A DNA stretch of 40,824 nt from a virus (IMGVR_UViG_2563366969_000004:1-40824), one strand, 5' to 3'; positions 6,611-35,389 are shown, numbered from the stretch's first letter. The notes: a model not told the origin generated them from the sequence alone. Numbers and translations: made by a program.

Positions 6611-6625
6611 TTACCTTTCAGGTAA
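6611..6625. promoter_or_regulatory. TTACC-N5-GGTAA palindrome (putative repressor operator), copy A
   Basis: ATTACCtttcaGGTAAT perfect inverted repeat upstream of small antirepressor-like gene. Confidence 0.5.
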
Positions 6626-6662
6626 TTTGCAAAACGTGCTGGATAGCAAACAAATTATTTGA

Positions 6663-6682
6663 TACTGTATAAATATACAGTT
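6663..6682. promoter_or_regulatory. LexA (SOS) box overlapping promoter of 6702..6959 gene
   Basis: TACTGTATAAATATACAGTT: CTGT-N8-ACAG with AT-rich spacer, near-consensus to enterobacterial SOS box TACTGTATATATATACAGTA; overlaps TATAAA -10-like hexamer. Confidence 0.65.
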
Positions 6683-6701
6683 ATTGCATGGAGAAGATAA
6701 G

Positions 6702-6959
6702 ATGCAGCAGTATCACTATCCACTGGAAGACGGATTTACCGAAAGGATTCACACGCCGGGAGGCGTCAGGTCACTGGTGGAGGGATCGCACTTGATGAAA
6801 TTACTCCGGGATCTCGATAAGGATGGATTTAATGTCGATGGCCCACTTGCCGAACTGACTGCACTGATTAACTACGTCACCAGCTCACAGATGTCTATGC
6901 AGGATCTGCAAACACATCTCGACTATTGTGCCGAACAATTACGAAAACAAACCCGGTAA
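6702..6959 (+). CDS. Small protein (85 aa) homologous to C-terminal domain of the Bro-N protein at 8108..8818; candidate SOS-inducible antirepressor
   Basis: ATG at 6702 with SD GGAG 8 nt upstream (the six-frame ORF start at 6684 is TTG); roughly 40 percent identity by eye over about 70 aa to residues about 165-236 of the Bro-N protein; LexA box on its promoter. Confidence 0.6.
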   Translation: MQQYHYPLEDGFTERIHTPGGVRSLVEGSHLMKLLRDLDKDGFNVDGPLAELTALINYVTSSQMSMQDLQTHLDYCAEQLRKQTR

Positions 6960-6965
6960 ATTTAA

Positions 6966-6983
6966 AGGCCGCAAGAGCGGCCT
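6966..6983. terminator. Hairpin between convergent genes (terminator-like)
   Basis: AGGCCGC-aaga-GCGGCCT; same stem sequence recurs at 9642..9659. Confidence 0.4.
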
Positions 6984-7710
6984 ATCGTTTCGCTTTGTGC
7001 TCGTCCCAGCACGTTTTGCACCATGCCATTAAGCCGTCCGCATTTTGATTATTAGGGTAAAAGCTGGTCCGTTTTCTGCGGACATTACAAATTGGGCACC
7101 ACTTCATATGGCGTGTATTCTTTGGGCCATCGAGACACCTTGCACACCACTTAGTCAATCCATCTGGATTTTTTGACGATTTCCGGAATTTGTCATATGG
7201 AAGGTTTATTCTGCATCGCAAACACTGCTTGCGGCCACTTGAAACTCTGTTAGCTGATTCTTCTTTTGGCGGCGATACAGAAGGTATTCTTGCTGGCTCT
7301 GATACTGCCTGAGGTGCTTTTTTAGATGACTGAGACGATATGTCATCACCAGGGAATCTTCCATGATATGCCGGACGCGTTGACACTCCAGGTGGAAGCT
7401 CAGCTGTAAACGGCTTTGGCTGAATCAGTTGCCTCTCTTTTGCTAACTCCTGCTGTTTATAATATGTCTGGATTACCGCACTATCATAAGCAGGAGGTAC
7501 GGAAATATCAGGCGCGTTACCTCCAGTTTTTTGAAAATGAGTAGATGTGTGTTCTATCACCTGTGTACGACTAATCGTTACCTCCCCATCTTCGGTCTTT
7601 ATCGTTTTGTTCTGATTAACGACCGTACGATCAGAGATCTTAGTCTTGTTCTGGTTGATAACGTAAATAATCACCGCAACCACACCAACAACTATCCAGA
7701 AAACTTCCAT
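6982..7710 (-). CDS. Membrane-anchored protein with tandem C4 zinc-ribbon repeats, unknown function
   Basis: N-terminal TM helix followed by basic residues; C-terminal two repeats of C-x2-C-x21/22-(DGL..W)C-x2-C; SD GAGGAAAA upstream of ATG. Confidence 0.6.
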   Translation of the reverse strand: MEVFWIVVGVVAVIIYVINQNKTKISDRTVVNQNKTIKTEDGEVTISRTQVIEHTSTHFQKTGGNAPDISVPPAYDSAVIQTYYKQQELAKERQLIQPKPFTAELPPGVSTRPAYHGRFPGDDISSQSSKKAPQAVSEPARIPSVSPPKEESANRVSSGRKQCLRCRINLPYDKFRKSSKNPDGLTKWCARCLDGPKNTRHMKWCPICNVRRKRTSFYPNNQNADGLMAWCKTCWDEHKAKR

Positions 7711-7730
7711 TGCTTTTCCTCACAATAACA

Positions 7731-7745
7731 TTACCTTAAAGGTAA
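7731..7745. promoter_or_regulatory. TTACC-N5-GGTAA palindrome, copy B
   Basis: ATTACCttaaaGGTAAT, 20 bp upstream of start of 6982..7710 gene in divergent region. Confidence 0.5.
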
Positions 7746-7823
7746 TATCTTGCTTTCAGGTGATCAAGCGTTAAACGCAATCAACCAAATACGGTTGATT
7801 TTAATATTTCTTCGCGTTTATCA

Positions 7824-7838
7824 TTACCTTTGCGGTAA
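7824..7838. promoter_or_regulatory. TTACC-N5-GGTAA palindrome, copy B2
   Basis: TTACCtttgcGGTAA between divergent accessory genes, upstream of structured leader. Confidence 0.5.
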
Positions 7839-7929
7839 ATTTACATCGCACTCCTCTTGTGCCATAGTAATCGGGCACTGGCAAAATCCAGTGCCGGGAT
7901 TGGCGTCCCGGGTTACTAAGTGGCGCATA

Positions 7930-7951
7930 CCACGCCAGACGTGGTTTTTTT
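7930..7951 (+). terminator. Rho-independent terminator/attenuator upstream of Bro-N gene
   Basis: CCACG-ccaga-CGTGG followed by T7; preceded by two further hairpins (7874..7895, 7895..7911). Confidence 0.5.
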
Positions 7952-8107
7952 ATGCGTTAAGCACAGCTATATCCGAATTATGGTGGGCTGGGCAGGGGTC
8001 CGAAAGGACGCCGGTACCACTTAGGCCGGTACGCCAACCTTGTCCAGTTCACCACCAGTAATTGGCGTTGCGGTGGTGATTAAAATCACTAAGTGGAGAT
8101 AACCACC

Positions 8108-8818
8108 ATGGCTAATGCTCAAACTTCCATCTTCAAATTTGAATCTGTTAACCCTATCCGTTCCATCATTATCGATGGCCAACCATGGTTTGTAGCCCAA
8201 GACGTTTGTAGTGCGCTGCGTATCCAAAACGTCACCCAAGCACTTGAAAAACTGGATGATGATGAAAGGTCTATGTTCAACATAGGGCATGAACATCGTG
8301 CAATTTTTGACAGCCGAGTAAAAGAGATCAACATCATCTCCGAGTCAGGCCTCTACACACTGATCCTCAGCTGCCGCGACGCAGTGACACCAGGCACTAT
8401 CCCCTACCGCTTTCGTAAATGGGTTACAGGTGAGGTTCTTCCTCAGATCCGCCGCACCGGAAGTTACATAAAAAACTCGCTCCCGCAAGAAGAACGCATA
8501 AAGATGGTTGCCGACCAGGTAGCCAACGCCACGGCGTCAGCAGTAATGCAGGCGATGAAGATAGAGAACAAAACCTACAGTGCCCCACTGAAGCCCGGCT
8601 ACCGCAGCCTGATTCACTCGCCGTCTGGTGTTCTCGGCCTGACGGAGAACTCACTGCTGATGAATCTGTTGAACCAGTTACAGGAAGACGGGCACGACGT
8701 ATCGGGCGCGGCGGCGGAGCTGACCACCATGTTCTGCTACATCGTCGGTGTGAGCAAATGCCTGCGTGATATCCAGACCCACGCGGAGTACATCAACGAC
8801 AAGGCAGGGTTCTTCTGA
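8108..8818 (+). CDS. Bro-N domain antirepressor-like protein (Ant-like)
   Basis: N-terminal Bro-N/KilA-N-like motif (IFKFES...IRSIIIDGQPWFVAQDVCSALRI...) ; C-terminal domain homologous to 6702..6959 product; ATG 8108 with SD GGAG (the six-frame ORF starts at GTG 8093). Confidence 0.7.
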   Translation: MANAQTSIFKFESVNPIRSIIIDGQPWFVAQDVCSALRIQNVTQALEKLDDDERSMFNIGHEHRAIFDSRVKEINIISESGLYTLILSCRDAVTPGTIPYRFRKWVTGEVLPQIRRTGSYIKNSLPQEERIKMVADQVANATASAVMQAMKIENKTYSAPLKPGYRSLIHSPSGVLGLTENSLLMNLLNQLQEDGHDVSGAAAELTTMFCYIVGVSKCLRDIQTHAEYINDKAGFF

Positions 8819-8889
8819 CGGCGGCGGCACAGGGATGTGCCTTTAAATAATTCTGTACGATTGCAGACCGGGGGGTGAATAGAGTACTA

Positions 8890-8904
8890 TTACCTTACGG
8901 GTGA
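8890..8904. promoter_or_regulatory. Imperfect TTACC-N5-GGTGA palindrome overlapping candidate promoter
   Basis: TTGCAG (8861..8866) - 17 bp - GTACTA promoter-like elements immediately upstream; site overlaps -10/+1. Confidence 0.35.
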
Positions 8905-8992
8905 TCCATAGCGATTAGGCACCGATACAGGAGGAGCCCACATGAGAAAATTTGACGAGTACGAAGGCGTTTAACATTCGGATAGTTTAATG

Positions 8993-9015
8993 ACGGGGCC
9001 ATTAGGCCCCGTTTT
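8993..9015 (+). terminator. Hairpin/attenuator in leader of 9034 gene
   Basis: ACGGGGCC-atta-GGCCCCGT followed by TTT; preceded by 10-codon mini-ORF (8942..8974) with SD AGGAGG. Confidence 0.35.
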
Positions 9016-9033
9016 CATGTCTGGAGACAGTTT

Positions 9034-9573
9034 GTGTTAAGTGAAGAAATGCAATTTGCCATGGCTGTGGCTCAAATCGTAAGTGCAGTCGCGGTTTCGC
9101 TTGGCTTGTTCATAGCTATCGCTACTATTATTTATAATGTAAATACAGCGAGAAAAGTACACACTTCAGTATTCCTTGGTGAAAGCAGGTTTGATGTAGA
9201 TTATAAGAAAGGCCTATCTACTATGCGCCGCATTCACGAGTCGAACAAATCATTCCGCTCTTATATGTATCCAAGCAATGGGCAGGCTGATCTTACGGAT
9301 GAAGAAAAGATAGAGAAGAGAGAAATAATTTACTGTCTAGGTTTCTACGAACGCATGGCTGTGAGCGTGAAGCGGAAAACTTATGATGAGACCATGATTA
9401 AGGAAGTATTTTACAGCTCCGTTGTAAATAACTATCAGATTGCGCTACCTCTTATACAAGCTATTAGAGAAAAAGAAAACATAAACACATATTTTAAAGA
9501 ATATGAATGGTTGGCCACACGATGGAAGGATTGTCCATTGAAGGATAAATCCCCGTGGTACAAGTTTTGGTAA
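9034..9573 (+). CDS. Membrane-anchored hypothetical protein (179 aa); candidate superinfection-exclusion or abortive-infection factor
   Basis: N-terminal TM helix then about 140-aa soluble domain; AT-rich by eye relative to flanking phage genes; own terminator; opposite strand to late operon; start GTG 9034 (SD GGAGACAG) or ATG 9049. Confidence 0.6.
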   Translation: MLSEEMQFAMAVAQIVSAVAVSLGLFIAIATIIYNVNTARKVHTSVFLGESRFDVDYKKGLSTMRRIHESNKSFRSYMYPSNGQADLTDEEKIEKREIIYCLGFYERMAVSVKRKTYDETMIKEVFYSSVVNNYQIALPLIQAIREKENINTYFKEYEWLATRWKDCPLKDKSPWYKFW

Positions 9574-9596
9574 GCCCGCGCTGCGGGCTTTTTTGT
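9574..9596 (+). terminator. Rho-independent terminator
   Basis: GCCCGC-gct-GCGGGC followed by T6. Confidence 0.7.
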
Positions 9597-9633
9597 GTCT
9601 GCGGATTCCCGCCCGGGTGGCGGTGGCATTCGT

Positions 9634-9659
9634 TAAAAACAAGGCCGCGAAAGCGGCCT
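9634..9659 (-). terminator. Rho-independent terminator for minus-strand small membrane gene
   Basis: AGGCCGC-gaaa-GCGGCCT with T-run on minus strand. Confidence 0.55.
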
Positions 9660-9671
9660 GTGACATGTCAC
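9660..9671. repeat. 12-bp perfect palindrome GTGACATGTCAC, copy 1
   Basis: Exact match; abuts terminator hairpin; overlaps stop codon of 9668..9964 gene. Confidence 0.7.
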
Positions 9672-9964
9672 GTCCCTTTTCTGAATGATAGCCATTCGAA
9701 AAATGATGACATTCCACCGCAGACAATAGCAAAGATGATCCCACCAAAGAAGAGAAGGCCAGCCTGCCACCACTCCCACCGCCATACATCCACAGCGCCA
9801 ACCATACCAACAATCGCTCCAACAAATGGAATATAGCTCACGATGAAAGCAATGGGGGCTGCAATTATCCAGTGCAATCCCCACCATGATTCAAGCCCAG
9901 CCATAATTGCTGCCAACTGAAAAAGACCAACGACGATATAAACAATGAATCCTATAGCTTGCAT
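9668..9964 (-). CDS. Small multi-TM membrane protein (98 aa), unknown function
   Basis: ATG 9962..9964 (complement) with SD AGGTGA; about 3-4 hydrophobic helices, Trp-rich loop. Confidence 0.5.
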   Translation of the reverse strand: MQAIGFIVYIVVGLFQLAAIMAGLESWWGLHWIIAAPIAFIVSYIPFVGAIVGMVGAVDVWRWEWWQAGLLFFGGIIFAIVCGGMSSFFEWLSFRKGT

Positions 9965-10160
9965 GTAGTCACCTAATTTACCCAGTAAAAATAAGAGGCC
10001 TCCCCTCAATAAGGCTTGCAACAAGAACTACTCCCTGCACAACAAAGATGAACCAGCAAATAGCTTGAGTCTGAGGGTTAAGAAAATATTTGTAGCGGTC
10101 AATAAATAACAATCCACCAGAAATTATCACACTCAAAATAATTAAAAACACAACACTTCC

Positions 10161-12635: not shown

Positions 12636-12640
12636 TTAAT

Positions 12641-17962: not shown

Positions 17963-20433
17963 CAGAATCCCCCAACAGTAAGGCGAGGAATAACGGCAAG
18001 AACAGACAGCGGCAACGGATCAAGCTGACGGATTTTTACACGTCCGTTTTTGCCCCAGTTACTGTCCAGTTTCACTTCTACTTTTCCGGTAGCATCATCA
18101 ACAGGATCATCGTAGAACTCGAATTCACGCTGTGGATATTCGTACCATTTACCGCCAGGCGTAGTCGCCCAGATGCCGCGGCTGGCATTCACAACCAGAG
18201 TAACGGAGGGGATCACCTGTTTTTTGTCCAGCAGCGTTTCCTGTCCGTTAATGTTGATATCCAGTGTTTCGAATTCAGCAGTTATTGGCAGGCCGATGTG
18301 CACAACAGCCCCAGGTGATTCCAGCGTGACGGCACCTCCGGAAACCACTTTCTGTGGTTCCACGTTCGCATCAGAGAGAATGTTTACGGTCTGGCCTTCA
18401 AGATGAGACAGGCCTCCAAATGTCCGGCGCGCCATCTGCCAGTTCGTGGTGGCCACATTCCTGAGGGATGGCGGGACGTTCCTGTTAGCACGAACCACTA
18501 CAGCGGTGTTGCTGGTTACAGAAATAATGTCGCAACGTAATTCTTTTGACACCTCATCGCCAGTATCAGGATCAGTTCCGGTATAAGGGAACTGTAGTTG
18601 CGCGCCGACATCACTACTGGTGAAGTACGCACCACCAGAAACACTGATTGTATATTCCGCGCGGTAATCCCATTCGCCAGAACCACCAGTGATGATCATC
18701 GTTCTGTCAGACGTATTTCTTCCATCATAGCTAAGGCCAGAATCAACAAAGAAAGCATCTTCATCGCTGGTAAATAAACGGCTGGACAGTCGCTCGATGT
18801 ATCTCACTGTTTGCCCGTTAACGGTTCGGTTAACGACGAAATACACCGCATCTTCATTGCCTTCGCTGATACTGCATGTGCTTTCATATTTTCCGGTACT
18901 GGATTGTGGTGCCCATGCAAAAACCTGCTGATCACGCAAATAGGTCATCACCAGTAATTTACCGTCATCACGAATGCAGAAGGCACTGGAGTAAGGGACA
19001 ATCGAGAAGCACCAGTCAACAATGCTGTGCTTCTGAAAAAGATGATTGGCAAGGATGGTCAGGTCGTTCCCCTGATAGCCGTCAACATCGAATGAGTAGG
19101 CCAGATCACGGACAACGCTGCCTTTCTCCTGGACGAACAGAGCAATATTCGCCACGGCAATTGGCGGGACGTTGCTTGAGCCATTTGATCCCTGAGAGCT
19201 GAATGCAAATGATGATGGGGTTAACACTTTGTTCTGGTCGCCGGTGATGACGTACTCACCTCCGGAAGTCAGTGCCACCAGCGAACCGACATCAATCAGG
19301 TGGCGGATCTCATTAACCTGACGCCCGGCATAGGTGTAGATAATTCTGTCGTCATCCTGCGTAGGATTGCTTTTGCCAAAATCCTTATAATCCCCGGTAC
19401 GGCTGGCCCAGATAGTCTGAGGAAACGCAGTCGATGCGGCGAAGTAAAGACGTTGTTGATAATAAACAACAGTGCCAGGATAACCATTAACACTGTTCCA
19501 GGCATATTTAGCCCATTTATAGCTGGCATTATCCTCGCCCACGACCTGCGAAGGGATATAGGAAATCACCTCGGCAGTTGCAGTAGTTCCATTTGCAGCA
19601 GTGATACGGGCAATGCCAAAACCACTGTGCAGATATTCCCACTCAATGCCAGTATCATCATCACCGGATCCGCCCCAGCCATCCCATGATGTGCCTTCTG
19701 TATGCGAAGGGCGCAAAGTACCTGTTTTGCCTACTGTAACGGCGCGATAGTAGTTACTGTCTGCACGGCGAATATCGCCAATCGACGTACTCTTACTGGT
19801 TTCCCATACCGGCACAGAATCCACTGCAGGCTGTTCCAGATAGAACAATTTGCCTACCTGCTCCGCGCCAAAAATAGAGGCGCTTGCCGTTAGCGTAATT
19901 GTCCCGGTGCTGGCGCTGGCATAAACCGTCACTGACTCGTCAATATTGATATCTTCAAATGGCCCGTTCTTCGTTACCACATCAACCAGTTGCCAGTTGT
20001 CATGCGCATAGCGGCGCAACTCTTTCGGCGGGTATGCCGGATGAACCAGCGTAAGCACGTCTGCGCTTTGCGTGAATTTAATTCGGAACAGATCGGCTTC
20101 AGTATATGGCGTGGCAATTTCATAAATAACATTGCTGCTGTTCAGCACCAACGCACCATCTTTGATAACGCGCATGTACTGGTGTCCAAACTCCAGAGCA
20201 TAAGTCTGAACCGTCGAGAACTGGAACGGGATCAGGCGGCATTTCCGATTTGGGTATTTGGCGGCACCGACAAAACGCGTACCAGGTCGATTCTCAACGC
20301 CGCCATACTGCCGCACGATAAAGTTATCGCACTTGCGCAATGCCACCTGGTACTTAGCCATGTCAATACGCCCGTACAACGACGGTCCAATCTCACCACC
20401 GGCAAAGCTGGGCTGGATCCAACTGATAGCCAT
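17962..20433 (-). CDS. Tail tubular protein B-like (T7 gp12-like nozzle / tail hub)
   Basis: 823 aa; N-terminal QPSFAGGEIGPS... resembles the conserved start of T7 gp12-family proteins; follows gp11-like gene. Confidence 0.6.
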   Translation of the reverse strand: MAISWIQPSFAGGEIGPSLYGRIDMAKYQVALRKCDNFIVRQYGGVENRPGTRFVGAAKYPNRKCRLIPFQFSTVQTYALEFGHQYMRVIKDGALVLNSSNVIYEIATPYTEADLFRIKFTQSADVLTLVHPAYPPKELRRYAHDNWQLVDVVTKNGPFEDINIDESVTVYASASTGTITLTASASIFGAEQVGKLFYLEQPAVDSVPVWETSKSTSIGDIRRADSNYYRAVTVGKTGTLRPSHTEGTSWDGWGGSGDDDTGIEWEYLHSGFGIARITAANGTTATAEVISYIPSQVVGEDNASYKWAKYAWNSVNGYPGTVVYYQQRLYFAASTAFPQTIWASRTGDYKDFGKSNPTQDDDRIIYTYAGRQVNEIRHLIDVGSLVALTSGGEYVITGDQNKVLTPSSFAFSSQGSNGSSNVPPIAVANIALFVQEKGSVVRDLAYSFDVDGYQGNDLTILANHLFQKHSIVDWCFSIVPYSSAFCIRDDGKLLVMTYLRDQQVFAWAPQSSTGKYESTCSISEGNEDAVYFVVNRTVNGQTVRYIERLSSRLFTSDEDAFFVDSGLSYDGRNTSDRTMIITGGSGEWDYRAEYTISVSGGAYFTSSDVGAQLQFPYTGTDPDTGDEVSKELRCDIISVTSNTAVVVRANRNVPPSLRNVATTNWQMARRTFGGLSHLEGQTVNILSDANVEPQKVVSGGAVTLESPGAVVHIGLPITAEFETLDININGQETLLDKKQVIPSVTLVVNASRGIWATTPGGKWYEYPQREFEFYDDPVDDATGKVEVKLDSNWGKNGRVKIRQLDPLPLSVLAVIPRLTVGGF

Positions 20434-26139: not shown

Positions 26140-26229
26140 ATCAATGACTCCGTACGCAATTAAATTATTACCAATTTAACCACATATGATTTATTTATCG
26201 TAGAAGGTTGACATTTAACGCGTTAATTA

Positions 26230-26244
26230 TTACCTTTCAGGTAA
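26230..26244. promoter_or_regulatory. TTACC-N5-GGTAA palindrome, copy C
   Basis: ATTACCtttcaGGTAAC; TTGACA hexamer at 26208..26213 just upstream; about 320 bp upstream of tRNA. Confidence 0.5.
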
Positions 26245-26566
26245 CCAAAGGGCTCATTCTGGTTACTAACCTGACTGGCTTGTCGTTAAATTAAACAGGT
26301 GGAGTGAGCTTTTATTTTGAGCAGTACGGCGTATGGCACATGCGCCGATAGCGGTCTGGATACGTTTAAGGGGCACCCTCCCTGGCTGTGGCAAACGAAC
26401 CAGGTAGCCGGAATGTGCAAGTCGAGCGGTTTTATTCCGCGCACGGGGATTCACCATCCCGGCGATTCGGTGTGACGCCTCGGAAGAGACGAGGGTACAA
26501 CGATGAGAGCATTTATGGAGCCGCGACAAAGTGTGGCGCCTTAACAGGCTAAGTGCTCTCAGCGTT

Positions 26567-26643
26567 GTGGCATTAGCTCAGTTGGACAGAGCAACCGCCT
26601 TCTAAGCGGTTGGTCGCAGGTTCGAATCCTGCATGCCACGCCA
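26567..26643 (+). tRNA. tRNA-Arg (anticodon UCU), phage-encoded
   Basis: Cloverleaf folded by hand: acceptor GTGGCAT/ATGCCAC, D-arm GCTC/GAGC, anticodon stem ACCGC/GCGGT with loop CTTCTAA, T-arm GCAGG-TTCGAAT-CCTGC, discriminator G and encoded CCA. Confidence 0.9.
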
Positions 26644-26840: not shown

Positions 26841-27263
26841 ATGAAGACAATTGATATGTTGGCTAAGTATCTAAATGAATGGCCATTAAAATATTCTCGT
26901 ATCGTTCAGGCTGAAGACTGCATTTTTTATGGCGTTTTTGCTGGTAATGAAATGCATTACGAAGTAATTCAGAGTGAGGGACTGGCCGGGTTAACTCTTA
27001 GCGAAGACCATGGTACTAGCGTTACGTACCATGACTGGATTTCAGCGCAGAAAACTGAAATGGAAAAAGGCAATGTGTTTGATATTTCTCGCGCTGTATA
27101 CGCCAAAGAAAAAAGTGATGATGATTACATGCGCGAAAACTTATACAACATGAAGTTACAATGCCTGGCTGAAGTGCTTAGTAAAAGATCTTTACTTGAT
27201 GTGGTTGGTGCTGAGCAGGACGCCAAGGCAATCAACGCCGCATTCGATAAAATAACCTTCTAA
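26841..27263 (+). CDS. Hypothetical protein (140 aa), moron between terminase and portal
   Basis: SD AAGGTGAG upstream of ATG; AT-rich by eye; opposite strand to flanking late genes; own terminator. Confidence 0.6.
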   Translation: MKTIDMLAKYLNEWPLKYSRIVQAEDCIFYGVFAGNEMHYEVIQSEGLAGLTLSEDHGTSVTYHDWISAQKTEMEKGNVFDISRAVYAKEKSDDDYMRENLYNMKLQCLAEVLSKRSLLDVVGAEQDAKAINAAFDKITF

Positions 27264-27308: not shown

Positions 27309-28782
27309 ATGCAAAAGGATCATAGTCTGTGATGGCTTTGCCTTGCTGGTTCTGCTGCCCGGGAATTCGCAGACGCTTCGACACAGGGAACGCAAACGTC
27401 AGCAGTAGCGCATCGCCTTTACCAGGAGAACGCCCAAGTCGCTCTTTGATATCTTCCTTCGGTTCGATAACGATTTTACCGTCCACGCGAACTTTGTACT
27501 CTGCCGTCGACAGGTCGTCCGCTGTTTCCTGGTCATCCAGCATGCCGCCGAGCCTCAGCCATGTCTTGCATGAGTTGAACATCTCCCCACGCTTGTTGAG
27601 CATCTGCGGGTCAGTAGACGCGCCACCGAACGGAACAAGTTGCCATGTACGACCCCAGCCGTCACCGATTGACTTCAAACCGGTTCCGTAACCGAAGTCG
27701 ATGAACACCGCGTCAGCCTGATACTGGTCTTCAAAGTCAGCGATACGCTTCGCCATAATCAGATCGTCGGTAGTCTTGTTGCCAGTCCACAGCACCTTAC
27801 TGTGTAGCCCCTGCCGCAGGTATATCACCGCGTCATCAACGCCGGAGTATGCCGGGTCAACGCCGATTATCACCGGAGCATGTGCCACCTGCGCAGCGGT
27901 TACCACCCGTTTCATTGCCTCGTCAGTAAGACCGGTAGGGATAAACTGCAATTCAGATGCATCAGGGAATATGCCGCGCACACGGATTTTAACGAAGTCG
28001 CTGTCTTCCCCGTAGTCATCAACCCATTTCTGCAACTGCTGTTTGTTAGTGCCTTCCACCGTTCGGCTGTCAATCTGCGCAGTTTTCCAGCGGTGTTTAT
28101 ATTTGCGGAAACATTCGCGGAAACGTCCGGTATTACGCGTCGGGTTTCCGAACGCCACCCAGATAATCTCAGTGTCTTCGTCCGTTAGTGCACCCTCGGC
28201 AACTTCCCACACCAGATCCGCAATGTTCGACGCTTCATCGAATACCACGATGATGCGTTTGCGCTCGTTGTGTAGTCCGGCGAATGCCTCAGTGTTGTGC
28301 TCAGACCAGGGGATTGCGTCAGCTCGCCACCGCTTGTCGTGTCCAGGATCATTGCTGTACATCGCGGTAGCGGTACAGGTAAACCAGTCTTTCGTGATAG
28401 CAAGGTTCGACCACTTGATAATTTCCGGCCAGGTCTTCGTTCGTAGCTGGTTGTCGGTGTTGGCGGTCACCACAACCTTACAATCCTCGCAAGTGGACAT
28501 GCCCCAGTTGATCAGCATTGAGATGAATGCGGATTTACCAATACCGTGACCAGAAGCGCGTGCCAGCATAAGCGGCTGATAACGCGTCTCTGGATTCTGC
28601 AGGTGATCACGTATCTCTCGGAACGCATCGGCCTGCCACTGACGTGGACCGGTAGCATGTGCCAGTTCAGTCCCCTCTTCCCCCCAAGGGAACGCATAGA
28701 GGGCATAGCCAAGCGGATCGTGAGTGAACCCTGCAATATCTTCGATTAACTGCTCTTCAGGAGATAACGCTGCATCTGTCAC
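27307..28782 (-). CDS. Terminase large subunit
   Basis: 491 aa; Walker A-like GHGIGKS; C-terminal nuclease-type acidic motifs (VDPAYSGVDDAVI); directly downstream of small terminase. Confidence 0.85.
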   Translation of the reverse strand: MTDAALSPEEQLIEDIAGFTHDPLGYALYAFPWGEEGTELAHATGPRQWQADAFREIRDHLQNPETRYQPLMLARASGHGIGKSAFISMLINWGMSTCEDCKVVVTANTDNQLRTKTWPEIIKWSNLAITKDWFTCTATAMYSNDPGHDKRWRADAIPWSEHNTEAFAGLHNERKRIIVVFDEASNIADLVWEVAEGALTDEDTEIIWVAFGNPTRNTGRFRECFRKYKHRWKTAQIDSRTVEGTNKQQLQKWVDDYGEDSDFVKIRVRGIFPDASELQFIPTGLTDEAMKRVVTAAQVAHAPVIIGVDPAYSGVDDAVIYLRQGLHSKVLWTGNKTTDDLIMAKRIADFEDQYQADAVFIDFGYGTGLKSIGDGWGRTWQLVPFGGASTDPQMLNKRGEMFNSCKTWLRLGGMLDDQETADDLSTAEYKVRVDGKIVIEPKEDIKERLGRSPGKGDALLLTFAFPVSKRLRIPGQQNQQGKAITDYDPFA

Positions 28783-29384
28783 TGATTGCCATCCTGACGT
28801 TCTTTCAGTCTCTTCCTGGCTGCCGCTATGCGATCAGCAATTGTCACATTCACATTAACATCCAGGCGTTCTTTGAATGCATTGACATCGACGTGCTTAC
28901 CAATCAGTTCGAGGTTCTTCACCTTGTCAGGCCATTTAATTTTTTTGAGGATTGTCTCTATCGAATCCTCGTCCATGTTCATGATGGTCGATGACAGATC
29001 AAAGCCGCTAAGCGTAGTGCGCCAGATTTTCGGCCACTCGCGGATTGGCTTAAGGCTCCCATCGTCGTTGAGGATATCAATCACGTCCATCTGGTCGATC
29101 TCCACCAGGCGCATGAGAACGTAATCAGCACTGACGCGCATTCGTTTGTTGCGCTCCTCCATCAACTCGGCAATCCGTTTCTGAATGCGTTCATCGCGCA
29201 TCATGACACTGGCTTTAACTGCCGCTGTATTTGGGGAGAATCCTGCATTAATCGCAGCCTGAGTCTGATTTTCAGGCGTTTTGATGTATGACTGGCAATA
29301 AGCCTCCTGCATTGCTGTTAGTGGCTTAAATTGCGTTGATTTGCGTTTATAGGTTTTAGGTTCAGCAGGCATCATAACCACCAT
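28779..29384 (-). CDS. Terminase small subunit (Terminase_2-like)
   Basis: LTAMQEAYCQSYIKTPENQTQAAINAGFSPNTA matches conserved N-terminal HTH of the small-terminase family; start uncertain (in-frame ATGs at 29384, 29375, 29372; the six-frame ORF starts at TTG 29453). Confidence 0.65.
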   Translation of the reverse strand: MVVMMPAEPKTYKRKSTQFKPLTAMQEAYCQSYIKTPENQTQAAINAGFSPNTAAVKASVMMRDERIQKRIAELMEERNKRMRVSADYVLMRLVEIDQMDVIDILNDDGSLKPIREWPKIWRTTLSGFDLSSTIMNMDEDSIETILKKIKWPDKVKNLELIGKHVDVNAFKERLDVNVNVTIADRIAAARKRLKERQDGNQ

Positions 29385-29449
29385 GGTAATAGTTACCGTT
29401 GTGGTAATAGTACCATGCAAAATAAAGCCGCCATAGTTGGCGGCAGTAT

Positions 29450-29662
29450 TCAAAGTCCATCAAATTCATCGTAAAAACTCTCGTCAAGATACCCTTCCCA
29501 TTTACCGCGAATGAAAATTACATCCTCGCCGCAAGGGTGCTGACTGTCGATAACTATATCCCTCCTGGCGCAACCATACTTATGCATGAGAAATTTAACC
29601 TCTTTCGGAAAATTTGCTGAGTTATCTCTCATATCTTCAAGGTCGTAGCGTATTTTTGGCAT
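29450..29662 (-). CDS. Small hypothetical protein (70 aa)
   Basis: ATG at 29660..29662 (complement) with SD GAAGGTG; palindrome copy 3 lies just upstream. Confidence 0.4.
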   Translation of the reverse strand: MPKIRYDLEDMRDNSANFPKEVKFLMHKYGCARRDIVIDSQHPCGEDVIFIRGKWEGYLDESFYDEFDGL

Positions 29663-29671
29663 AACACCTTC

Positions 29672-29683
29672 GTGACATGTCAC
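29672..29683. repeat. 12-bp perfect palindrome GTGACATGTCAC, copy 3
   Basis: Exact match immediately upstream of the SD of 29450..29662 gene and overlapping the end of 29680..30021 gene. Confidence 0.7.
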
Positions 29684-30021
29684 ACTATTAATTTCGTTTC
29701 ATGCCAGCCTTTAGTCACCCAGCATTGCGAGTCACCATTACACGGGCATGAATTAACGGGAACTCTCTCGCCGCACTTACCGCAAAGTTTTCTGCTGATC
29801 GATTTTATACGCCCGCGCACACGTGCATCATCCTGGCGGATCAGCAGCGCGATGTACTCGGCCATTTCATAGGGATCGTGACCAGGGCGCCGGGCGGCGC
29901 AGTTCCGCGCCAGCATTTCCTGCTCCTGCTTATCCAGCACCAGTTCAATTTTGCGCTCACCGGCGGCGGACTGCCGAGCGCGCTGCGCGGCTTTGCGCTC
30001 TGCTGCTGATTTAGCCATCAA
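29680..30021 (-). CDS. Hypothetical protein with C-terminal zinc ribbon; possible regulator
   Basis: 113 aa; basic N-terminus, C-terminal CGKCG...CPC cysteine cluster; last small gene before terminase genes. Confidence 0.45.
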   Translation of the reverse strand: MMAKSAAERKAAQRARQSAAGERKIELVLDKQEQEMLARNCAARRPGHDPYEMAEYIALLIRQDDARVRGRIKSISRKLCGKCGERVPVNSCPCNGDSQCWVTKGWHETKLIV

Positions 30022-30292: not shown

Positions 30293-30572
30293 GACCTTCC
30301 TCCTTTGGCTTGTGAATTTGTATCGTCATGCCGCTTTGAGTGGTGACTACAACGACAGAACCAGGCTGAAGACTGTTAAGATTGAATGCTTCGTAAAACG
30401 AAGCCAAGGCCAGCGCTTTTTTATTCTTTCGGTTCCACCAACGCCATCCATTGCTACAGGCTACACTGACAATCCACTGTCCACTCCTGTAAGCCATATA
30501 AAACCAGATGAGCAAAACCTGAATGAATGCTATCCAGTCAATAATCGTATATTTCGCGAAGGAGACCATCAA
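30285..30572 (-). CDS. Small membrane protein, unknown function
   Basis: 95 aa with N-terminal hydrophobic helix, Trp-rich. Confidence 0.4.
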   Translation of the reverse strand: MMVSFAKYTIIDWIAFIQVLLIWFYMAYRSGQWIVSVACSNGWRWWNRKNKKALALASFYEAFNLNSLQPGSVVVVTTQSGMTIQIHKPKEEGRG

Positions 30573-31294: not shown

Positions 31295-31839
31295 TGGCTG
31301 CCTCCTTTGCGAATCTGTTCCGCCCATTCTTCAAGGGATTTCTCCGCATATTCACCGGACAGGCCATCAATCGGGTGCGGTTCATTAGCCAACTCTTCTT
31401 TCGCTGACAGAATCATGCGTGTAACGTCGAAAACTTCACGTAAAGACTTATTGATAAATCCGTGGTTGAAAGCAGCAGCAAGACGGCTTGCGGTATAGTT
31501 AATCCCCTCGTTGCGAGCCTCCGCACGAATTTCAGCCAGAAAAGCATCGGTGGCTGGAGTTTCGCTGTGGTGCAGGGCATCGTTGATAATCATTGCAGCA
31601 ACTCCGGCCTGCCCTGCATCCGTGACCGACACATGCTCAAGAGTTACAGCCATTGCATGTTTCAGCCCCGCATTCTCCACAGCCAGCGCATTAGCACGCA
31701 CCAGTTGCACTTCCAGTTGCGTTGCCAAATCGCTGATCAGCTTTGCCACACTGCGCATATCAACGGCACCACATTCTGCTTTCAGTTCCGAAGCCATCTC
31801 ATGCCCGGCGGCAACTAACCCTTTGATATTACTTTCCAT
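31291..31839 (-). CDS. Hypothetical protein (nin-like region)
   Basis: 182 aa, acidic helical protein. Confidence 0.45.
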   Translation of the reverse strand: MESNIKGLVAAGHEMASELKAECGAVDMRSVAKLISDLATQLEVQLVRANALAVENAGLKHAMAVTLEHVSVTDAGQAGVAAMIINDALHHSETPATDAFLAEIRAEARNEGINYTASRLAAAFNHGFINKSLREVFDVTRMILSAKEELANEPHPIDGLSGEYAEKSLEEWAEQIRKGGSQ

Positions 31840-31900
31840 CTTTACCCTCGCTTATCCACATAACTTATTGATTACATTGATAACTAAAAAGATCGTCGAT

Positions 31901-32248
31901 TCAGAACTCTTCGATGTTCCAGCCACCACCTGCTTTCTTTGGTTTAACCGTTACCCCGATGATTCGGAACGGATACTGATCTGCGGCGACTTTGGTTTTC
32001 ACCCTGGCGTCGTCGGTCCAGAATCCCCCTTTCACTTCGTGCAGCTCCATCTCGCCGGTGGCGAGCATCACAGCAAAATCGGGCGTATAGAACGTGTTGT
32101 CAGCTAACCGCAGCTTGATACCCTCAAATCGATACCAGACGATTTCTCCTGCACGTTTACGCATCTCAAGGTGCTGGCAATACGCAGATTCTGTTTTGTT
32201 CATCTGGCCTGTTTTGAGTCGACCAAGAGCCTGTATCTGTTTTCTCAT
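31901..32248 (-). CDS. DUF1064-like phage protein
   Basis: 115 aa; pattern ...YTPDF...E.HEVKG...K.K resembles DUF1064 family; assignment from memory. Confidence 0.45.
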   Translation of the reverse strand: MRKQIQALGRLKTGQMNKTESAYCQHLEMRKRAGEIVWYRFEGIKLRLADNTFYTPDFAVMLATGEMELHEVKGGFWTDDARVKTKVAADQYPFRIIGVTVKPKKAGGGWNIEEF

Positions 32249-32251
32249 GAT

Positions 32252-32266
32252 TTACCTCTGAGGTAA
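32252..32266. promoter_or_regulatory. TTACC-N5-GGTAA palindrome, copy D
   Basis: TTACCtctgaGGTAA immediately upstream of DUF1064 gene start. Confidence 0.5.
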
Positions 32267-32313
32267 TTAAAAACCACATAAGACACGAAATCAATAGAGT
32301 TTAGAATATTTTG

Positions 32314-32328
32314 TTACCCAACAGGTAA
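32314..32328. promoter_or_regulatory. TTACC-N5-GGTAA palindrome, copy E
   Basis: TTACCcaacaGGTAA between P-like gene stop and DUF1064 gene. Confidence 0.5.
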
Positions 32329-32365
32329 CTATCAAGACATAAAAAAATGCGCTATCGCGCTGGTA

Positions 32366-33142
32366 TTACTTGATAAATCCTGCCGCCTTTCCCCGCCTGT
32401 ATTCCTCCATCAGCCACTGCGCCGGTGTTATTCCCCCCAGGGTGGCGGCGTTAGGCATGCACCCGAAACTTCGCCCTAGCGGGTGGTAAACGTCTCTCCC
32501 TGTGTCCGGAGGCGTACTCATGGGTTCTGGCTTTGCCTGTATGCTGATCACCGGATCGGGTATCTGCTGTCCGGAAGCCACCTTTTTCGCCCAATCATCG
32601 AGCAGCCTGCGCGCGTGTTTCTCAACCTCAATCTCGCTAAGCTGGCGCTGATACATTGCACGGCGGGTATCACATACGACCCAGTACATAACCGGATGCC
32701 GCCACGGGAATCTTTCGGGACCACCAGGATATAAACTTTTTTCCTTGCTGTACCGGTGAAACTCCGCCATCACATCGTCAATGGTGACGCCAAGAACCAT
32801 CTTGCTGTCTTTACACCACTTGATGAATTGCCCTGGCGACGGCCAGAACGGAGACTCACTGGCGCGGGCGTGGCGCATACCAGCGTTAACCTGTTCCATT
32901 GTAGTGATCCCATTCTCCAGAAACGCAAGCATCCATTGCTTACGGAATTCATTAAGTTTGTTCTGCTCCCTTATGGTCGAAACGCTTGCAGGAAATGCAG
33001 CCTGTAACTGGACAAATAGTTCATTGAAAATTCTAGCGACCTGCTCCTTTTTGCCATTGCTGTCACGCCGCTCTTCATGCACAGCAACACCATACTCACG
33101 TAAGCGATCGTACTCATTGAGAAGTTCTGGAGTTGATTTCAT
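32366..33142 (-). CDS. Replication protein P-like (helicase loader)
   Basis: Segments FLENGITTMEQVNAGMRHAR and FWPSPGQFIKWC closely resemble the conserved core of lambda P family as I recall it. Confidence 0.75.
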   Translation of the reverse strand: MKSTPELLNEYDRLREYGVAVHEERRDSNGKKEQVARIFNELFVQLQAAFPASVSTIREQNKLNEFRKQWMLAFLENGITTMEQVNAGMRHARASESPFWPSPGQFIKWCKDSKMVLGVTIDDVMAEFHRYSKEKSLYPGGPERFPWRHPVMYWVVCDTRRAMYQRQLSEIEVEKHARRLLDDWAKKVASGQQIPDPVISIQAKPEPMSTPPDTGRDVYHPLGRSFGCMPNAATLGGITPAQWLMEEYRRGKAAGFIK

Positions 33143-33944
33143 CCCACACCCCTTCTATCCAGTCAGTGTTATTCCAGTCAAGCTCATCGCTTTTCCCGAC
33201 GTTTTTTGATTTTCCCCTGATATGATTTACGTGCCTGGCGAATTTTTGTTCCCACTGAACCTGCGTGAACACTTTGCCCTCAGCCATCCAGTAATCCCGG
33301 AATGCAGCAAGTTCAGCAGGTGTAAATTCCGGTTCCGGCAGGGCCGTTCCCCACAGCGCAGCACGCCGTCGAAAATCCGGCGACGGATGCCAGCCATCGG
33401 TCATCGGAAATTTCCCAATAGGTTCACTCAGGCCATCCAGAAATGCAGGTTCTGCCACCTGCAACGGCGTACCGTTCGCTTCACTGGTCGGAGCACCCTC
33501 GCGCACGTGCGCTATGTGTGGGGTTTTATATATATCTTCCTCTTCCTCTTCCTCTGGTAACTCCTTTTGTAACGCTGTTGGCGTTACTTTTTGCGTTACT
33601 CGTTTTCGATGCTCTGCCACTCTTCTATTCGTAAGTGCACGTTTTTTCGATGATTCTCCATTATGTCGCTCAAAGTTTGGAAGAATTAGTTTGCCGTCAT
33701 GATAAGCAAGCCATCCGACGCTAATGAGGGCGTCAGCAAATCCTGTAATAAAAGCGAGTCTATCAAGTACTCCTTTTGTAACGCTGCCAGCGTTACCGTC
33801 TATTGTTTGCTGGTCAGCCCATGCCCATATACGAACCAGCTTTCCAAGAACAGCATCTGGATCAATACCCAGAATTTCTGCTATCTGAAAAATTTCAGGT
33901 TTATCAGGAGTGATAACTTCAACCTTAATCCAGCTGCTTGCCAT
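33114..33944 (-). CDS. Replication initiator / replisome organizer (lambda O-like role) with DnaT-like C-terminal region
   Basis: ATG 33942..33944 (complement) with SD GAGGGG; acidic EEEEEE linker; iteron-like DNA repeats inside the gene; immediately upstream of P-like gene. Confidence 0.6.
   Translation of the reverse strand: MASSWIKVEVITPDKPEIFQIAEILGIDPDAVLGKLVRIWAWADQQTIDGNAGSVTKGVLDRLAFITGFADALISVGWLAYHDGKLILPNFERHNGESSKKRALTNRRVAEHRKRVTQKVTPTALQKELPEEEEEEDIYKTPHIAHVREGAPTSEANGTPLQVAEPAFLDGLSEPIGKFPMTDGWHPSPDFRRRAALWGTALPEPEFTPAELAAFRDYWMAEGKVFTQVQWEQKFARHVNHIRGKSKNVGKSDELDWNNTDWIEGVWDEINSRTSQ
33560..33599. repeat. Iteron-like repeat 1 inside initiator gene (putative origin)
   Basis: ACTCCTTTTGTAACGCTG-ttg-GCGTTAC plus extra GCGTTAC half site; palindromic arms GTAACGC/GCGTTAC. 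Confidence 0.5.
33769..33796. repeat. Iteron-like repeat 2 inside initiator gene (putative origin)
   Basis: ACTCCTTTTGTAACGCTG-cca-GCGTTAC; same 18-nt core as repeat 1 but read in a different codon frame. Confidence 0.5.
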
Positions 33945-34137
33945 AGGTTTCCCCTCTTGCACTCTTTAGTGCACAAGCAAATTCATTACGATGGCGGTTG
34001 GCGCTATTCATTGCACATTCAACACATGTTCCGTTCAGAACATACCTTTCAGAGAGATGGCCGTGACGGCACCGCTTTCCTGTGAAATAGCGATTTAACC
34101 CGGCTTTTGCGGCCTCCATTCTGGTTACTATCTTCAA
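33925..34137 (-). CDS. Small Cys/His-rich hypothetical protein
   Basis: 70 aa from TTG start with SD AGGGG (ATG alternative at 34117..34119); CRHGH...CVEC motif. Confidence 0.4.
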   Translation of the reverse strand: MKIVTRMEAAKAGLNRYFTGKRCRHGHLSERYVLNGTCVECAMNSANRHRNEFACALKSARGETYGKQLD

Positions 34138-34215
34138 TTTTTCCGCCCCTTTTTGTTATTGATATTGGCTATTTTGCACAATTGGAAAATTTGATCAACC
34201 AGATTTGGTTTTTTA

Positions 34216-34230
34216 TTACCTTTGAGGTAC
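34216..34230. promoter_or_regulatory. Imperfect TTACC-N5-GGTAC palindrome
   Basis: ATTACCtttgaGGTAC just downstream of the terminator that follows the Cro-like gene. Confidence 0.35.
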
Positions 34231-34240
34231 GAATAGATAT

Positions 34241-34263
34241 GAAAAGACCGCCGGGTGGCGGTC
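34241..34263 (-). terminator. Rho-independent terminator after Cro-like gene (tR1-like position)
   Basis: On minus strand GACCGCC-accc-GGCGGTC followed by TTTTC. Confidence 0.55.
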
Positions 34264-34285
34264 TACAGAGGGTTGTAGCTGGATA

Positions 34286-34516
34286 TCATGAGTAGAAGAA
34301 GTATGCCAGTTCTGCTTTTGAGCGCAGCCATTGTCTTGTTTTACAGGCTTTAAAAAGCCCATTCATCAATACCTTACCTGGCATTTTGCGCTTGCCTGTT
34401 AAGTGAGTCTGGATATAGTGACTCGTCGTTCCGGCTTCCTGTGCGAAGGCTTCACGCTCATCCGGAGTAAGTGCAAGCCAGTGCTTTTTGAAATCGAAAT
34501 GTCCGTTATCGCTCAT
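34286..34516 (-). CDS. Cro-like HTH regulator
   Basis: 76 aa; HTH-like segment EAFAQEAGTTSHYIQTHLTGKRKMP; divergent from CI-like gene across operator-rich 154-bp region. Confidence 0.6.
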   Translation of the reverse strand: MSDNGHFDFKKHWLALTPDEREAFAQEAGTTSHYIQTHLTGKRKMPGKVLMNGLFKACKTRQWLRSKAELAYFFYS

Positions 34517-34583
34517 AGCTATTGCCTGATATTTATTTCAGATAATAAATATTCACCCATAAGGTAACAAAAATCAAGGATGG

Positions 34584-34598
34584 TTACCTATGAGGTGC
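34584..34598. promoter_or_regulatory. Imperfect TTACC-N5-GGTGC palindrome (OR-like region)
   Basis: TTACCtatgaGGTGC, 2 bp from next copy. Confidence 0.35.
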
Positions 34599-34600
34599 AT

Positions 34601-34615
34601 TTACCTGTTGGGTAA
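34601..34615. promoter_or_regulatory. TTACC-N5-GGTAA palindrome (OR-like region)
   Basis: TTACCtgttgGGTAA between divergent Cro-like and CI-like genes. Confidence 0.55.
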
Positions 34616-34670
34616 TATTGCTTTAAATTGAATCATCTACTGATTCATATATGAGGCGATTTTCCAGAAA

Positions 34671-35255
34671 ATGAAAAGTATCCAGGACGTCCGCAGGCAA
34701 AATCTCAACGACTTGATCGACCGTGAATTCAATGGTGTTCAGACGCGGATGGCAGAAAAACTTGGAACTCAGGCAAATCTGGTAAACCGCTGGGCTCTTG
34801 GCAAGAAGGTTATCGGCGACCAGGTTGCGCGAAAAATTGAAGCTGCCGCCAATAAACCCCGTAACTGGCTTGATATCGATCGCTCGCTTTCTCAGGAAGG
34901 TTTTCAGCCTGTCGGCCCAAGCGACATTGGTCAGCTGGCGGCTCACAACCTGGAACGCTGGATGAGCGAAAGCCGCGACCTTTCAACACAGGGAAAACTT
35001 CACCGCGCATCCGGCGTCGCCCAGGTGACAATCAGCCGCCTGTTAAACAATGAGGTCAGCGTTTCCATTTCCACCCTGGAGAATGTTGCATCCGCATTCG
35101 GGCGTCACGGATATGAACTACTGATTCACCCGCACGACCCTGCGACTATCAACTATGACCGCTCACGCTACGCATTGTTACCCGAAACCGAGAAAGCAAA
35201 GATCGAAAGTTACATTGAATTTGTCATCAACCAGAACGAAAAAAGCAAACAATAA
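34671..35255 (+). CDS. CI-like prophage repressor with two HTH (XRE-type) segments, no S24 peptidase domain
   Basis: 194 aa; HTH-like QTRMAEKLGTQANLVNRWALGKK and SGVAQVTISRLLNNEVSVSISTLENVA; no Ser-Lys autocleavage module recognisable; no SD within 10 nt of ATG; strong terminator follows. Confidence 0.6.
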   Translation: MKSIQDVRRQNLNDLIDREFNGVQTRMAEKLGTQANLVNRWALGKKVIGDQVARKIEAAANKPRNWLDIDRSLSQEGFQPVGPSDIGQLAAHNLERWMSESRDLSTQGKLHRASGVAQVTISRLLNNEVSVSISTLENVASAFGRHGYELLIHPHDPATINYDRSRYALLPETEKAKIESYIEFVINQNEKSKQ

Positions 35256-35275
35256 AACTATATTTTTCAGTAAGT

Positions 35276-35299
35276 AAGCCGCCTCATGGCGGCTTTTTT
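35276..35299 (+). terminator. Rho-independent terminator after repressor gene
   Basis: AAGCCGCC-tcat-GGCGGCTT followed by T6. Confidence 0.65.
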
Positions 35300-35312
35300 A
35301 TTGCCATCAAGA

Positions 35313-35327
35313 TTACCTTATGGGTAA
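35313..35327. promoter_or_regulatory. TTACC-N5-GGTAA palindrome (OL-like region)
   Basis: TTACCttatgGGTAA. Confidence 0.55.
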
Positions 35328-35374
35328 TTTTTTTAACTCATATCTATTGACATCAAACCAAATACGCATAATCA

Positions 35375-35389
35375 TTACCTCAACGGTAA
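35375..35389. promoter_or_regulatory. TTACC-N5-GGTAA palindrome (OL-like region)
   Basis: TTACCtcaacGGTAA about 20 bp upstream of small ORF start. Confidence 0.55.

Follow-up and report, generated by a model that had tools for sequence, protein, structure and literature searches.

Dispersed palindromic operators in an epsilon15-like phage of Escherichia coli and their probable reader, the tetrameric repressor Rep

The viral stretch IMGVR_UViG_2563366969_000004 (hereafter the window, meaning the whole of its 40,824 nucleotides) falls within the genus Uetakevirus and represents an epsilon15/phiV10-like short-tailed temperate phage of Escherichia coli, its regulatory half being 98.6% identical to phage vB_EcoP_ZX5 (ZX5 below). 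It contains a family of palindromes, TTACC-N5-GGTAA (N for any base), that very probably serve as operators for Rep, a non-cleavable repressor that phages of the epsilon15/phiV10 type have as a tetramer and that is encoded here at 34671..35255 (+). The core of this claim is not new, since a dispersed operator set is a recorded feature of the genus and not a discovery; the feature is real and its attribution correct, it is part of an operator family already known, and it agrees with the workings of phage P1 and similar phages. Three elements are added, namely a full map of predicted operators and promoters, an architecture in which candidate promoters are bracketed by operators 62 bp apart, and a cargo slot putatively operated by Rep. 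The map supplies targets for the study of how tetrameric Rep represses, in a prophage type that is very common in E. coli (267 pattern-matched stretches of the viral collection encode a relative of Rep).

An exact search of the window recovers ten perfect copies of the palindrome (at 6611, 7731, 7824, 26230, 29393, 32252, 32314, 34601, 35313 and 35375), when shuffled sequences hold 0.01 on average and none out of 100 reaches ten. Four further copies depart from the motif by one mismatch (8890, 29375, 34216 and 34553), and copies with at most one mismatch number 14 against 0.70 expected. All 14 fall in the non-coding 7.9% of the window, a placement with a chance probability of about 4e-16, the coding fraction (92.1%) having been established from a gene map based on open reading frames (ORFs) and annotated relatives. 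A site at 34584 (TTACCTATGAGGTGC) has two mismatches and is the sole match of this quality in non-coding DNA of the window; at the aligned spot, epsilon15, SPC32H and BUCT711 have a perfect copy. In the 17-bp form of the motif, ATTACC-N5-GGTAAT, the flanking A/T is found in about 60%. The palindromes are a real site family. A preliminary description of the window had named nine perfect copies, all of them recovered by the exact search, and its statement that they exceed chance is borne out by the shuffles. Its list was incomplete, lacking the perfect copy at 29393 and the one-mismatch copies at 29375 and 34553, so that the copies ahead of the small terminase gene (29375 and 29393) were overlooked; of its three imperfect copies, 8890 and 34216 do have a single mismatch and 34584 has two.

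Rep is a protein of 194 amino acids whose residues 1–190 match PDB entry 5D50_A, the crystallised repressor of Salmonella phage SPC32H (E-value, E, of 3.5e-42), with an N-terminal DNA-binding domain, a middle HTH_3-like domain and a C-terminal tetramerisation domain. Pfam recognizes HTH_3 at residues 106–147 and, weakly, a YdaS/Cro-type helix-turn-helix (HTH) at residues 21–61; it gives HTH families only, and no S24 peptidase domain was found in the C-terminus. Rep is 99.5% identical to the ORF21 repressor of ZX5, the overexpression of which abolished free phage and reduced holin and endolysin mRNA by 99.97–99.99% (PMC9782041). The function of Rep, its binding to palindromes as a tetramer and the action of its antirepressor, Ant, come from earlier work. 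Rep of phage SPC32H is described as binding palindromic DNA as a tetramer (PMC9638917) and as being taken apart by tetrameric Ant (PMC9638917; PMC9986798); the C-terminal domain is likened there to DNA-looping tetramerisation domains, two DNA-binding pairs are placed about 100 angstroms apart on the tetramerisation domain, and repression by the unusual tetrameric Rep is said not to have been characterised extensively (PMC9986798). In the window, ant lies at 6702..6959 (+; match to the SPC32H antirepressor, PDB 5D50_E, E 5.4e-47), behind a perfect LexA box, TACTGTATAAATATACAGT, at 6665..6683 that is conserved in eight genomes. The antirepressor-like gene that the preliminary description had counted among accessory genes is thus a true LexA-controlled Ant. 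After DNA damage, Rep reportedly stays uncleaved; LexA is said to free ant, and Ant to dismantle the Rep tetramer (work attributed to Kim and Ryu in 2013 and Kim et al. in 2016). SPC32H and the window therefore share homologous Rep and Ant proteins (PDB 5D50, 5D4Z), a LexA box before ant, the operator motif and the positions of its copies; the SPC32H literature reportedly concerns protein structure and disassembly by Ant; the genome-wide operator map and the 62-bp pairs come from the present analysis.

The attribution of the sites to the repressor is already found in the record of Salmonella phage epsilon15 (NC_004775.2 / AY150271), which has seven features entered as ‘protein_bind, repressor, lysogeny’, with the sequence ATTACC-N5-GGTAAT. 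One precedes the small terminase gene and another gp3; a third separates gp19 (ant) from the tail-fibre gene; three follow the repressor gene, and the last is past the replication genes, before the next gene. Their places match those of copies in the window; copies in the rep/cro region of epsilon15 itself and a proximal copy at 35969 are left unmarked. The two phages thus have the same palindrome at matching places, but their repressors are only 42–43% identical overall, with a conserved N-terminal domain, and the operator-linked 242-amino acid gene, isrK/C4/Bro-N unit and DUF4760 unit of the window are missing from epsilon15. Kropinski et al. are reported to have published the epsilon15 genome in 2007. 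Neither the motif nor Uetakevirus operators gave any relevant result in full-text literature searches, and the paper on ZX5, the closest phage, does not describe the motif.

Conservation was assessed by mapping landmark genes and motif copies in ZX5, phiV10, epsilon15, TL-2011b, BUCT554, SPC32H and BUCT711 (eight genomes with the window). Each mapped relative has 8–11 perfect copies at matching positions, among them those at terminase, gp3, ant/tail fibre and the post-replication gene, and prophages of six enterobacterial species display the same layout, so that the motif is indeed kept at orthologous positions in related prophages. In a blind count of all 5-bp palindromes of BUCT711, TTACC-N5 ranks first, with nine copies versus four for the runner-up. 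Among 76 perfect sites of the eight genomes the central five bases vary, the middle one being A or T in about 98%. Finer resolution came from 79 prophages obtained by a viral-contig scan with a Rep alignment, which gave only repressors 99–100% identical to Rep and is suited to a polymorphism test, not to covariation. In this set the half-sites of six immunity-region operators have a nucleotide diversity of 0–0.05, whereas 21 N5 variants, with a diversity reaching 0.25, occur in the distal operator at 35313; the regional mean is 0.046. Fixed arms around a drifting middle are the pattern expected of a protein that would read the arms and not the centre.

By far the best candidate for this protein, judged from sequence, is Rep. 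Its putative recognition helix, NLVNRW, is invariant among Reps that are 42–76% identical overall, and the half-site is the same. More distant homologues of the N-terminal domain with differing helices (in Paraburkholderia, Hydrogenovibrio and Thiomicrospira) do not have the motif nearby, and a TACAACC repeat is seen near that of Paraburkholderia; the covariation is only suggestive, because the own operators of these distant homologues are not confidently definable. The N-terminal-domain alignment was too divergent to serve for genome scanning. CI of Pseudomonas phage PseuP_224 has an N-terminal domain homologous to that of Rep (39% identity, E 2e-13), joined to a C-terminal region that is different and much longer; four TTACC-N4-GGTAA sites (10906, 10932, 11768 and 11807 of locus L089) lie around its gene, with none elsewhere. 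Mcat9, another distant homologue of the N-terminal domain, also has a much longer and different C-terminal region. The reading of TTACC appears older than the dispersed layout, and the Rep-type N-terminal domain looks to be the common factor wherever TTACC is used, which is suggestive and short of proof. The earlier proposal that one protein, Rep, reads the whole set is well supported by the 5D50_A homology, the epsilon15 annotation and the constancy of NLVNRW; it is not novel.

The majority of copies lie across, or directly against, the −10 of predicted promoters of sigma-70-like type. The immunity region has the OR/OL-like layout proposed in the preliminary description, with three copies in the 154-bp region between rep and the divergent Cro-like gene and two directly beyond the repressor-gene terminator (35276–35295). 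The operator nearest rep (34601..34615, perfect) is identical in 80 of 80 close relatives; the middle one (34584..34598) is the two-mismatch site with perfect counterparts elsewhere; the third (34553..34567, one mismatch) is located between −35 and −10, in the spacer of a predicted rightward promoter for the Cro-like gene whose −35, TTGATT, is invariant in seven genomes. The Cro-like gene (34286..34516, −; 76 amino acids; phrog_35, E 5.6e-13), a homologue of epsilon15 gp39, is the first of the replication/early operon. Past its terminator, an imperfect operator (34216..34230) is separated by 17 bp from the downstream −35 of a predicted replication-gene promoter, TTGATC-16-CAAAAT; it has one mismatch in 53 close relatives and is also present in ZX5, phiV10, BUCT554 and BUCT711. 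On the other side of rep, the early promoter TTGACA-17-AATCAT (35347..35389, +), predicted to drive the gp37/RecE/RecT operon, has a promoter-scan score of 10/12 and an architecture kept in seven genomes; its proximal operator (35375–35389) abuts the −10, and the distal operator of this leftward-type promoter (35313..35327) is 19 bp upstream of the −35.

The same bracket is found before the DUF1064 gene (31901–32248, −; Pfam), where the promoter region 32252..32328 (−) has a distal operator at 32314–32328 and a proximal one at 32252–32266, 62 bp apart. The pairs 35313/35375 and 32314/32252 have an identical architecture, conserved in seven genomes, in the order terminator, distal operator, 19 bp, −35 (cTATTGA), 17 bp, −10 ending in AT, then TACC, the last T of the −10 being the first T of the TTACC core of the proximal operator. 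A spacing of 61–63 bp occurs twice in each genome examined, and the register of a −10 ending in AT followed by TACC recurs at 7824, 8890 and 29393. A promoter TTGATA-16-CAAAAT lying across operator 32314 was considered and rejected, its −35 not being conserved when cTATTGA-17-TTTAAT is. As a separate observation, the 7–8 bases before the distal operator at 35313 and its N5 (35304–35311 and 35318–35322) are hypervariable, with a diversity of 0.25–0.5 versus the mean of 0.046, and the distal operator at 32314 has the same hypervariable flank and N5; the half-sites of the distal operators are constant in the 79 near-identical prophages. Candidate causes are absent constraint, a mutation hotspot or affinity tuning.

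Two operators 18 bp apart (29375..29407, −; 29393 perfect, 29375 with one mismatch) precede the small terminase gene (28779–29372); immediately upstream of them are an extended −10, TGgTACTAT, and a terminator. They would guard the late operon, and their epsilon15 counterpart (12–27) is annotated as a repressor site. In the proximal operators 32252–32266 and 29375–29389, the right half also contributes to the ribosome-binding site, which is GAGGTAAatcATG in the case of DUF1064 and GGTGGTTATGATG in that of the small terminase; transcripts starting within them would have very short leaders. The copy between ant and the tail-fibre gene (6611..6625), the counterpart of which in epsilon15 (19895–19911) is likewise annotated as a repressor site, is either about 16 bp upstream of a possible −35 of ant or in the spacer of a weak tail-fibre-directed promoter, TTGCAA-16-TATCTA.

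Copies also stand, singly or in pairs, before the units listed in the preliminary description, namely the small antirepressor gene, the 242-amino acid zinc-ribbon gene, the Bro-N leader, the 179-amino acid DUF4760 gene, tRNA-Arg and DUF1064. For the 242-amino acid membrane/zinc-ribbon gene (6982–7710), the predicted promoter TTGATC-17-TACCTT (7731..7767, −) has its −10 inside operator 7731–7745, and the gene has its own predicted promoter, operator and terminator. The operator at 7731 is 93 bp from that at 7824, and the same pair with the same gene occurs in TL-2011b. A homologue of the gene in a Yersinia phage has no such operator upstream, and the operator is therefore taken to belong to the regulatory context of the phage group and not to the gene. 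On the other strand, the predicted promoter TTGATT-18-TATCAT (7795..7838, +), whose −10 is abutted by operator 7824–7838, would drive an isrK-type Hfq-binding RNA (7875–7951, +; Rfam score 67.7 bits, above the gathering score), a C4 antisense RNA (7976–8059, +; 66 bits versus a gathering score of 45) and, directly behind the latter, a Bro-N antirepressor-type gene (8093–8818, +; Pfam E 1.7e-19). The Bro-N protein is 80% identical over the aligned stretch to ORF4 of ZX5, the overexpression of which lowered lysogeny a thousand-fold (PMC9782041). This unit looks like the immI antirepressor operon of P1 and would be a second antirepressor module besides Ant.

In the late region, the predicted promoter TTGACA-17-TACCTT (26208..26244, +), with its −10 inside operator 26230–26244, points at tRNA-Arg (26567–26643, +) and an Sf6-gp66-like gene (26841–27263, +), which together form a unit on the opposite strand. 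Its −35 at 26208 (GTCAA on the aligned strand) is invariant in eight genomes, and the epsilon15 copy (2931–2947) is annotated as a repressor site. Between the operator and the tRNA, about 320 GC-rich nucleotides (26245–26566, +) contain no Rfam family and no obvious gene; they may be a leader or an undescribed RNA.

A further predicted accessory promoter, TTGCAG-18-TACTAT (8861..8904, +), the −10 of which is abutted by the one-mismatch operator 8890–8904, precedes the DUF4760 gene (9034–9573, +; 179 amino acids; E 1.6e-30). All relatives with DUF4760 likewise have an imperfect site here, and the mismatch may permit leakage. Promoter and operator, situated after Bro-N, are common to the window and TL-2011b while the genes behind them differ; they mark the upstream border of a cargo slot. 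A pattern scan of viral contigs for the slot promoter gave 104 matches; among the 79 with enough downstream DNA, clustering of the first 600 bp separates nine clusters (at least nine different modules). YafO-type toxins are the products of two clusters, and the others match no known family; DUF4760 and membrane proteins are among the cargo. The slot region corresponds to 8861–9040 of the window and to loci L101–L180; in six of the eight clusters listed it is bounded downstream by a conserved gene for a small secreted protein (MKKAFAALFVLL...). PADLOC assigned no defence system to the accessory genes of the window or to the slot cargo proteins tested, the only match being a negligible one to Cas8b (E 0.009).

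The cargo slot goes beyond the annotation of epsilon15. Three units look like accessory cassettes (the 242-amino acid gene, the tRNA-Arg/Sf6-gp66-like unit and DUF4760). To this extent, the control of moron promoters suggested in the preliminary description stands, with operators overlapping or abutting the predicted −10 of the three cassette-like units and with the cargo slot; it does not extend to Ant, the Bro-N antirepressor operon and the terminase copies, which are core regulatory or lytic units. A broader view, in which Rep gates swappable cargo, slot modules and cassettes with their own operators being silenced and the 62-bp pairs acting as a portable silencing module looped by one tetramer, is put forward tentatively, with somewhat more doubt than belief. 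If it were true, ‘morons’ would be made only upon induction or infection and not in the lysogen, and Rep-gating of the slot would change how the function of the accessory genes (defence, host takeover or toxin) is read.

The mechanism envisaged for the whole set is as follows. One N-terminal helix-turn-helix domain of Rep would read each half-site, (A)TTACC, leaving the central five bases unread except for the A/T preference in the middle. In a lysogen, Rep on operators overlapping or abutting −10/+1 of sigma-70-type promoters would block the start of RNA polymerase at both early promoters next to rep, at those of DUF1064 and of the terminase (late operon), and at four accessory ones (242-amino acid gene, isrK/C4/Bro-N, DUF4760 and tRNA-Arg). 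At two promoters the second operator 62 bp upstream (about six helical turns) could allow one Rep tetramer to loop the promoter. Upon DNA damage, LexA would leave ant, Ant would dismantle the Rep tetramer, and all these promoters would be freed together. Sites, placement, conservation and homologies come from the present analysis; the occupancy of each site, the repression of each promoter and looping are what we infer from them.

Several points weigh against this assignment to Rep or against uniform repression. The sites marked in epsilon15 may be predictions only, and the Cro-like protein may bind the same sites, as in lambda. Matches to the promoter consensus are no commoner in the scan than in shuffled sequence, and the weight of the promoter calls rests for this reason on conservation. 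The copies at 6611 and 34216, 16–17 bp upstream of a candidate −35, occupy a ‘distal’ position with no proximal partner, and are unexplained by simple occlusion since they lie upstream of the −35 and not on the promoter. In phiV10, epsilon15 and SPC32H, a copy has the lysis genes on one side and, on the other, those for O-antigen conversion, which are active in lysogens. A copy beside a gene need not mean silence.

Alternatively, some copies may not be simple off-switches: the ones upstream of the −35 (6611, 34216 and, in each 62-bp pair, the distal operator) would serve as loop anchors, UP-element blockers or activators, and the imperfect copy at 8890 would give only partial repression, with cargo still made in lysogens. 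This pair of proposals is rather improbable as a whole, although it accords with the centring of 6611 and 34216 near −55 to −60 of the nearest predicted promoters, with the imperfection of 8890 in all DUF4760-carrying relatives and with the copy adjoining lysogen-expressed O-antigen genes in the three phages just named; at the four accessory promoters the operator is directly on −10/+1, a position that is normally repressive. Comparably doubtful is a role for the Cro-like protein, either beside Rep or as the main reader of the dispersed copies. Its gene is divergent from rep across three operators, its family (phrog_35) is designated ‘transcriptional repressor’, and it is 76–80% conserved in epsilon15, SPC32H and BUCT554, all of which have the motif. 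Yet PseuP_224 combines the same TTACC half-site and a homologous repressor N-terminal domain with an unrelated Cro, divergent from CI and without similarity to that of the window, the epsilon15 record credits the sites to the repressor, and Pfam detects no HTH in the Cro-like protein; sites shared by both proteins would in any case leave the role of Rep intact. Far less probable than either, to the point of being hardly credible, is that the palindrome acts in RNA, as a hairpin or terminator, or that a restriction-modification enzyme or a phage methyltransferase targets it. The 17-mers do fold as weak hairpins (−3.5 to −4.5 kcal/mol), the bipartite form does resemble type I recognition sites, and genes for DNA methyltransferases are present in the phage. 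However, the arms are fixed and have no compensating changes where an RNA hairpin would tolerate paired ones, the sites are on promoters ahead of transcription starts and not at gene ends, the actual terminators are separate GC-rich hairpins, and a restriction or methylation target would not be limited to 7.9% of the DNA. Weak folds and fixed arms led to the rejection of the hairpin/terminator reading.

Operators of Rep, as the sites are here understood, can be set beside those of other phages. In phage P1, the primary repressor C1 has many scattered operators and controls accessory as well as regulatory units, including immI (c4 RNA–icd–ant). The window shares with P1 an antirepressor operon with a C4 antisense RNA (by Rfam here) and many dispersed operators; it differs in that C1 has no sequence relationship to Rep and recognizes an asymmetric site of 17 bp, whereas Rep is a tetramer reading a palindrome, and in that the antirepressor-type gene is Bro-N. 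The preliminary description had called control of moron promoters by the repressor unusual, a weaker part of its proposal, as the dispersed layout was already annotated in epsilon15 and control of accessory units by the repressor is classical in P1. With lambda CI and its operators OL and OR, the window has in common a repressor gene with operator clusters on either side, placed over two divergent early promoters, and binding at the operators flanking rep is likely to be cooperative or looped, as in lambda, if the arrangement of the sites is a guide; the differences are the absence of an S24 self-cleavage domain, induction by an antirepressor and the presence of operators on distant late and accessory promoters as well. 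The stoperators of mycobacteriophage L5, bound by gp71, are asymmetric, lie in transcribed regions in one orientation and block elongation. Both L5 and the window have many genome-wide sites, but those of the window are palindromes confined to non-coding, promoter-adjacent DNA; membership of the L5 gp71 stoperator type was rejected, the sites being palindromic and all copies with at most one mismatch being non-coding and beside promoters. Dispersed asymmetric operators are also mentioned for phage L1, a relative of L5 (PMC1934351).

Relatives of the window have additional copies. All complete ones carry, 57 bp ahead of the integrase gene and embedded in a larger inverted repeat, a one-mismatch operator (ATTACCTTAAAGGTATA; 8026 in L001, 26870 in L002, 26882 in L003 and 135 in L004); the window, ending at 40824, stops at the integrase start codon, and the corresponding copy would lie just outside it. 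In relatives with O-antigen genes placed between the tail fibre and the lysis genes, a copy is located about 120 bp before the lysis cassette; the copies of this divergent O-antigen/lysis region are at 24692 in L002, 24704 in L003, 24782 in L006 and 21929 in L005. The phiV10 copy is about 40 bp from the start of oac, and Rep may influence the conversion genes.

Between the gene of a gp49-like regulator (29680–30021) and the terminase promoter, the window has about 200 extra bases with a 77-amino acid ORF (29450–29690), absent in ZX5 and TL-2011b. A second conserved box, CATATGTGGTT (0–1 mismatch), occurs on the minus strand at 26178–26188, 6571–6581, 3141–3151 and 32272–32282. It stands 7 nucleotides before a −10-like hexamer ahead of gp3, the tail-fibre gene and the lysis genes, adjoins the −10 of the DUF1064 promoter as well, and hardly varies across the eight genomes. 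Its role may be that of a late-promoter box or of an activator box, with the gp49-like regulator as one example of a possible partner.

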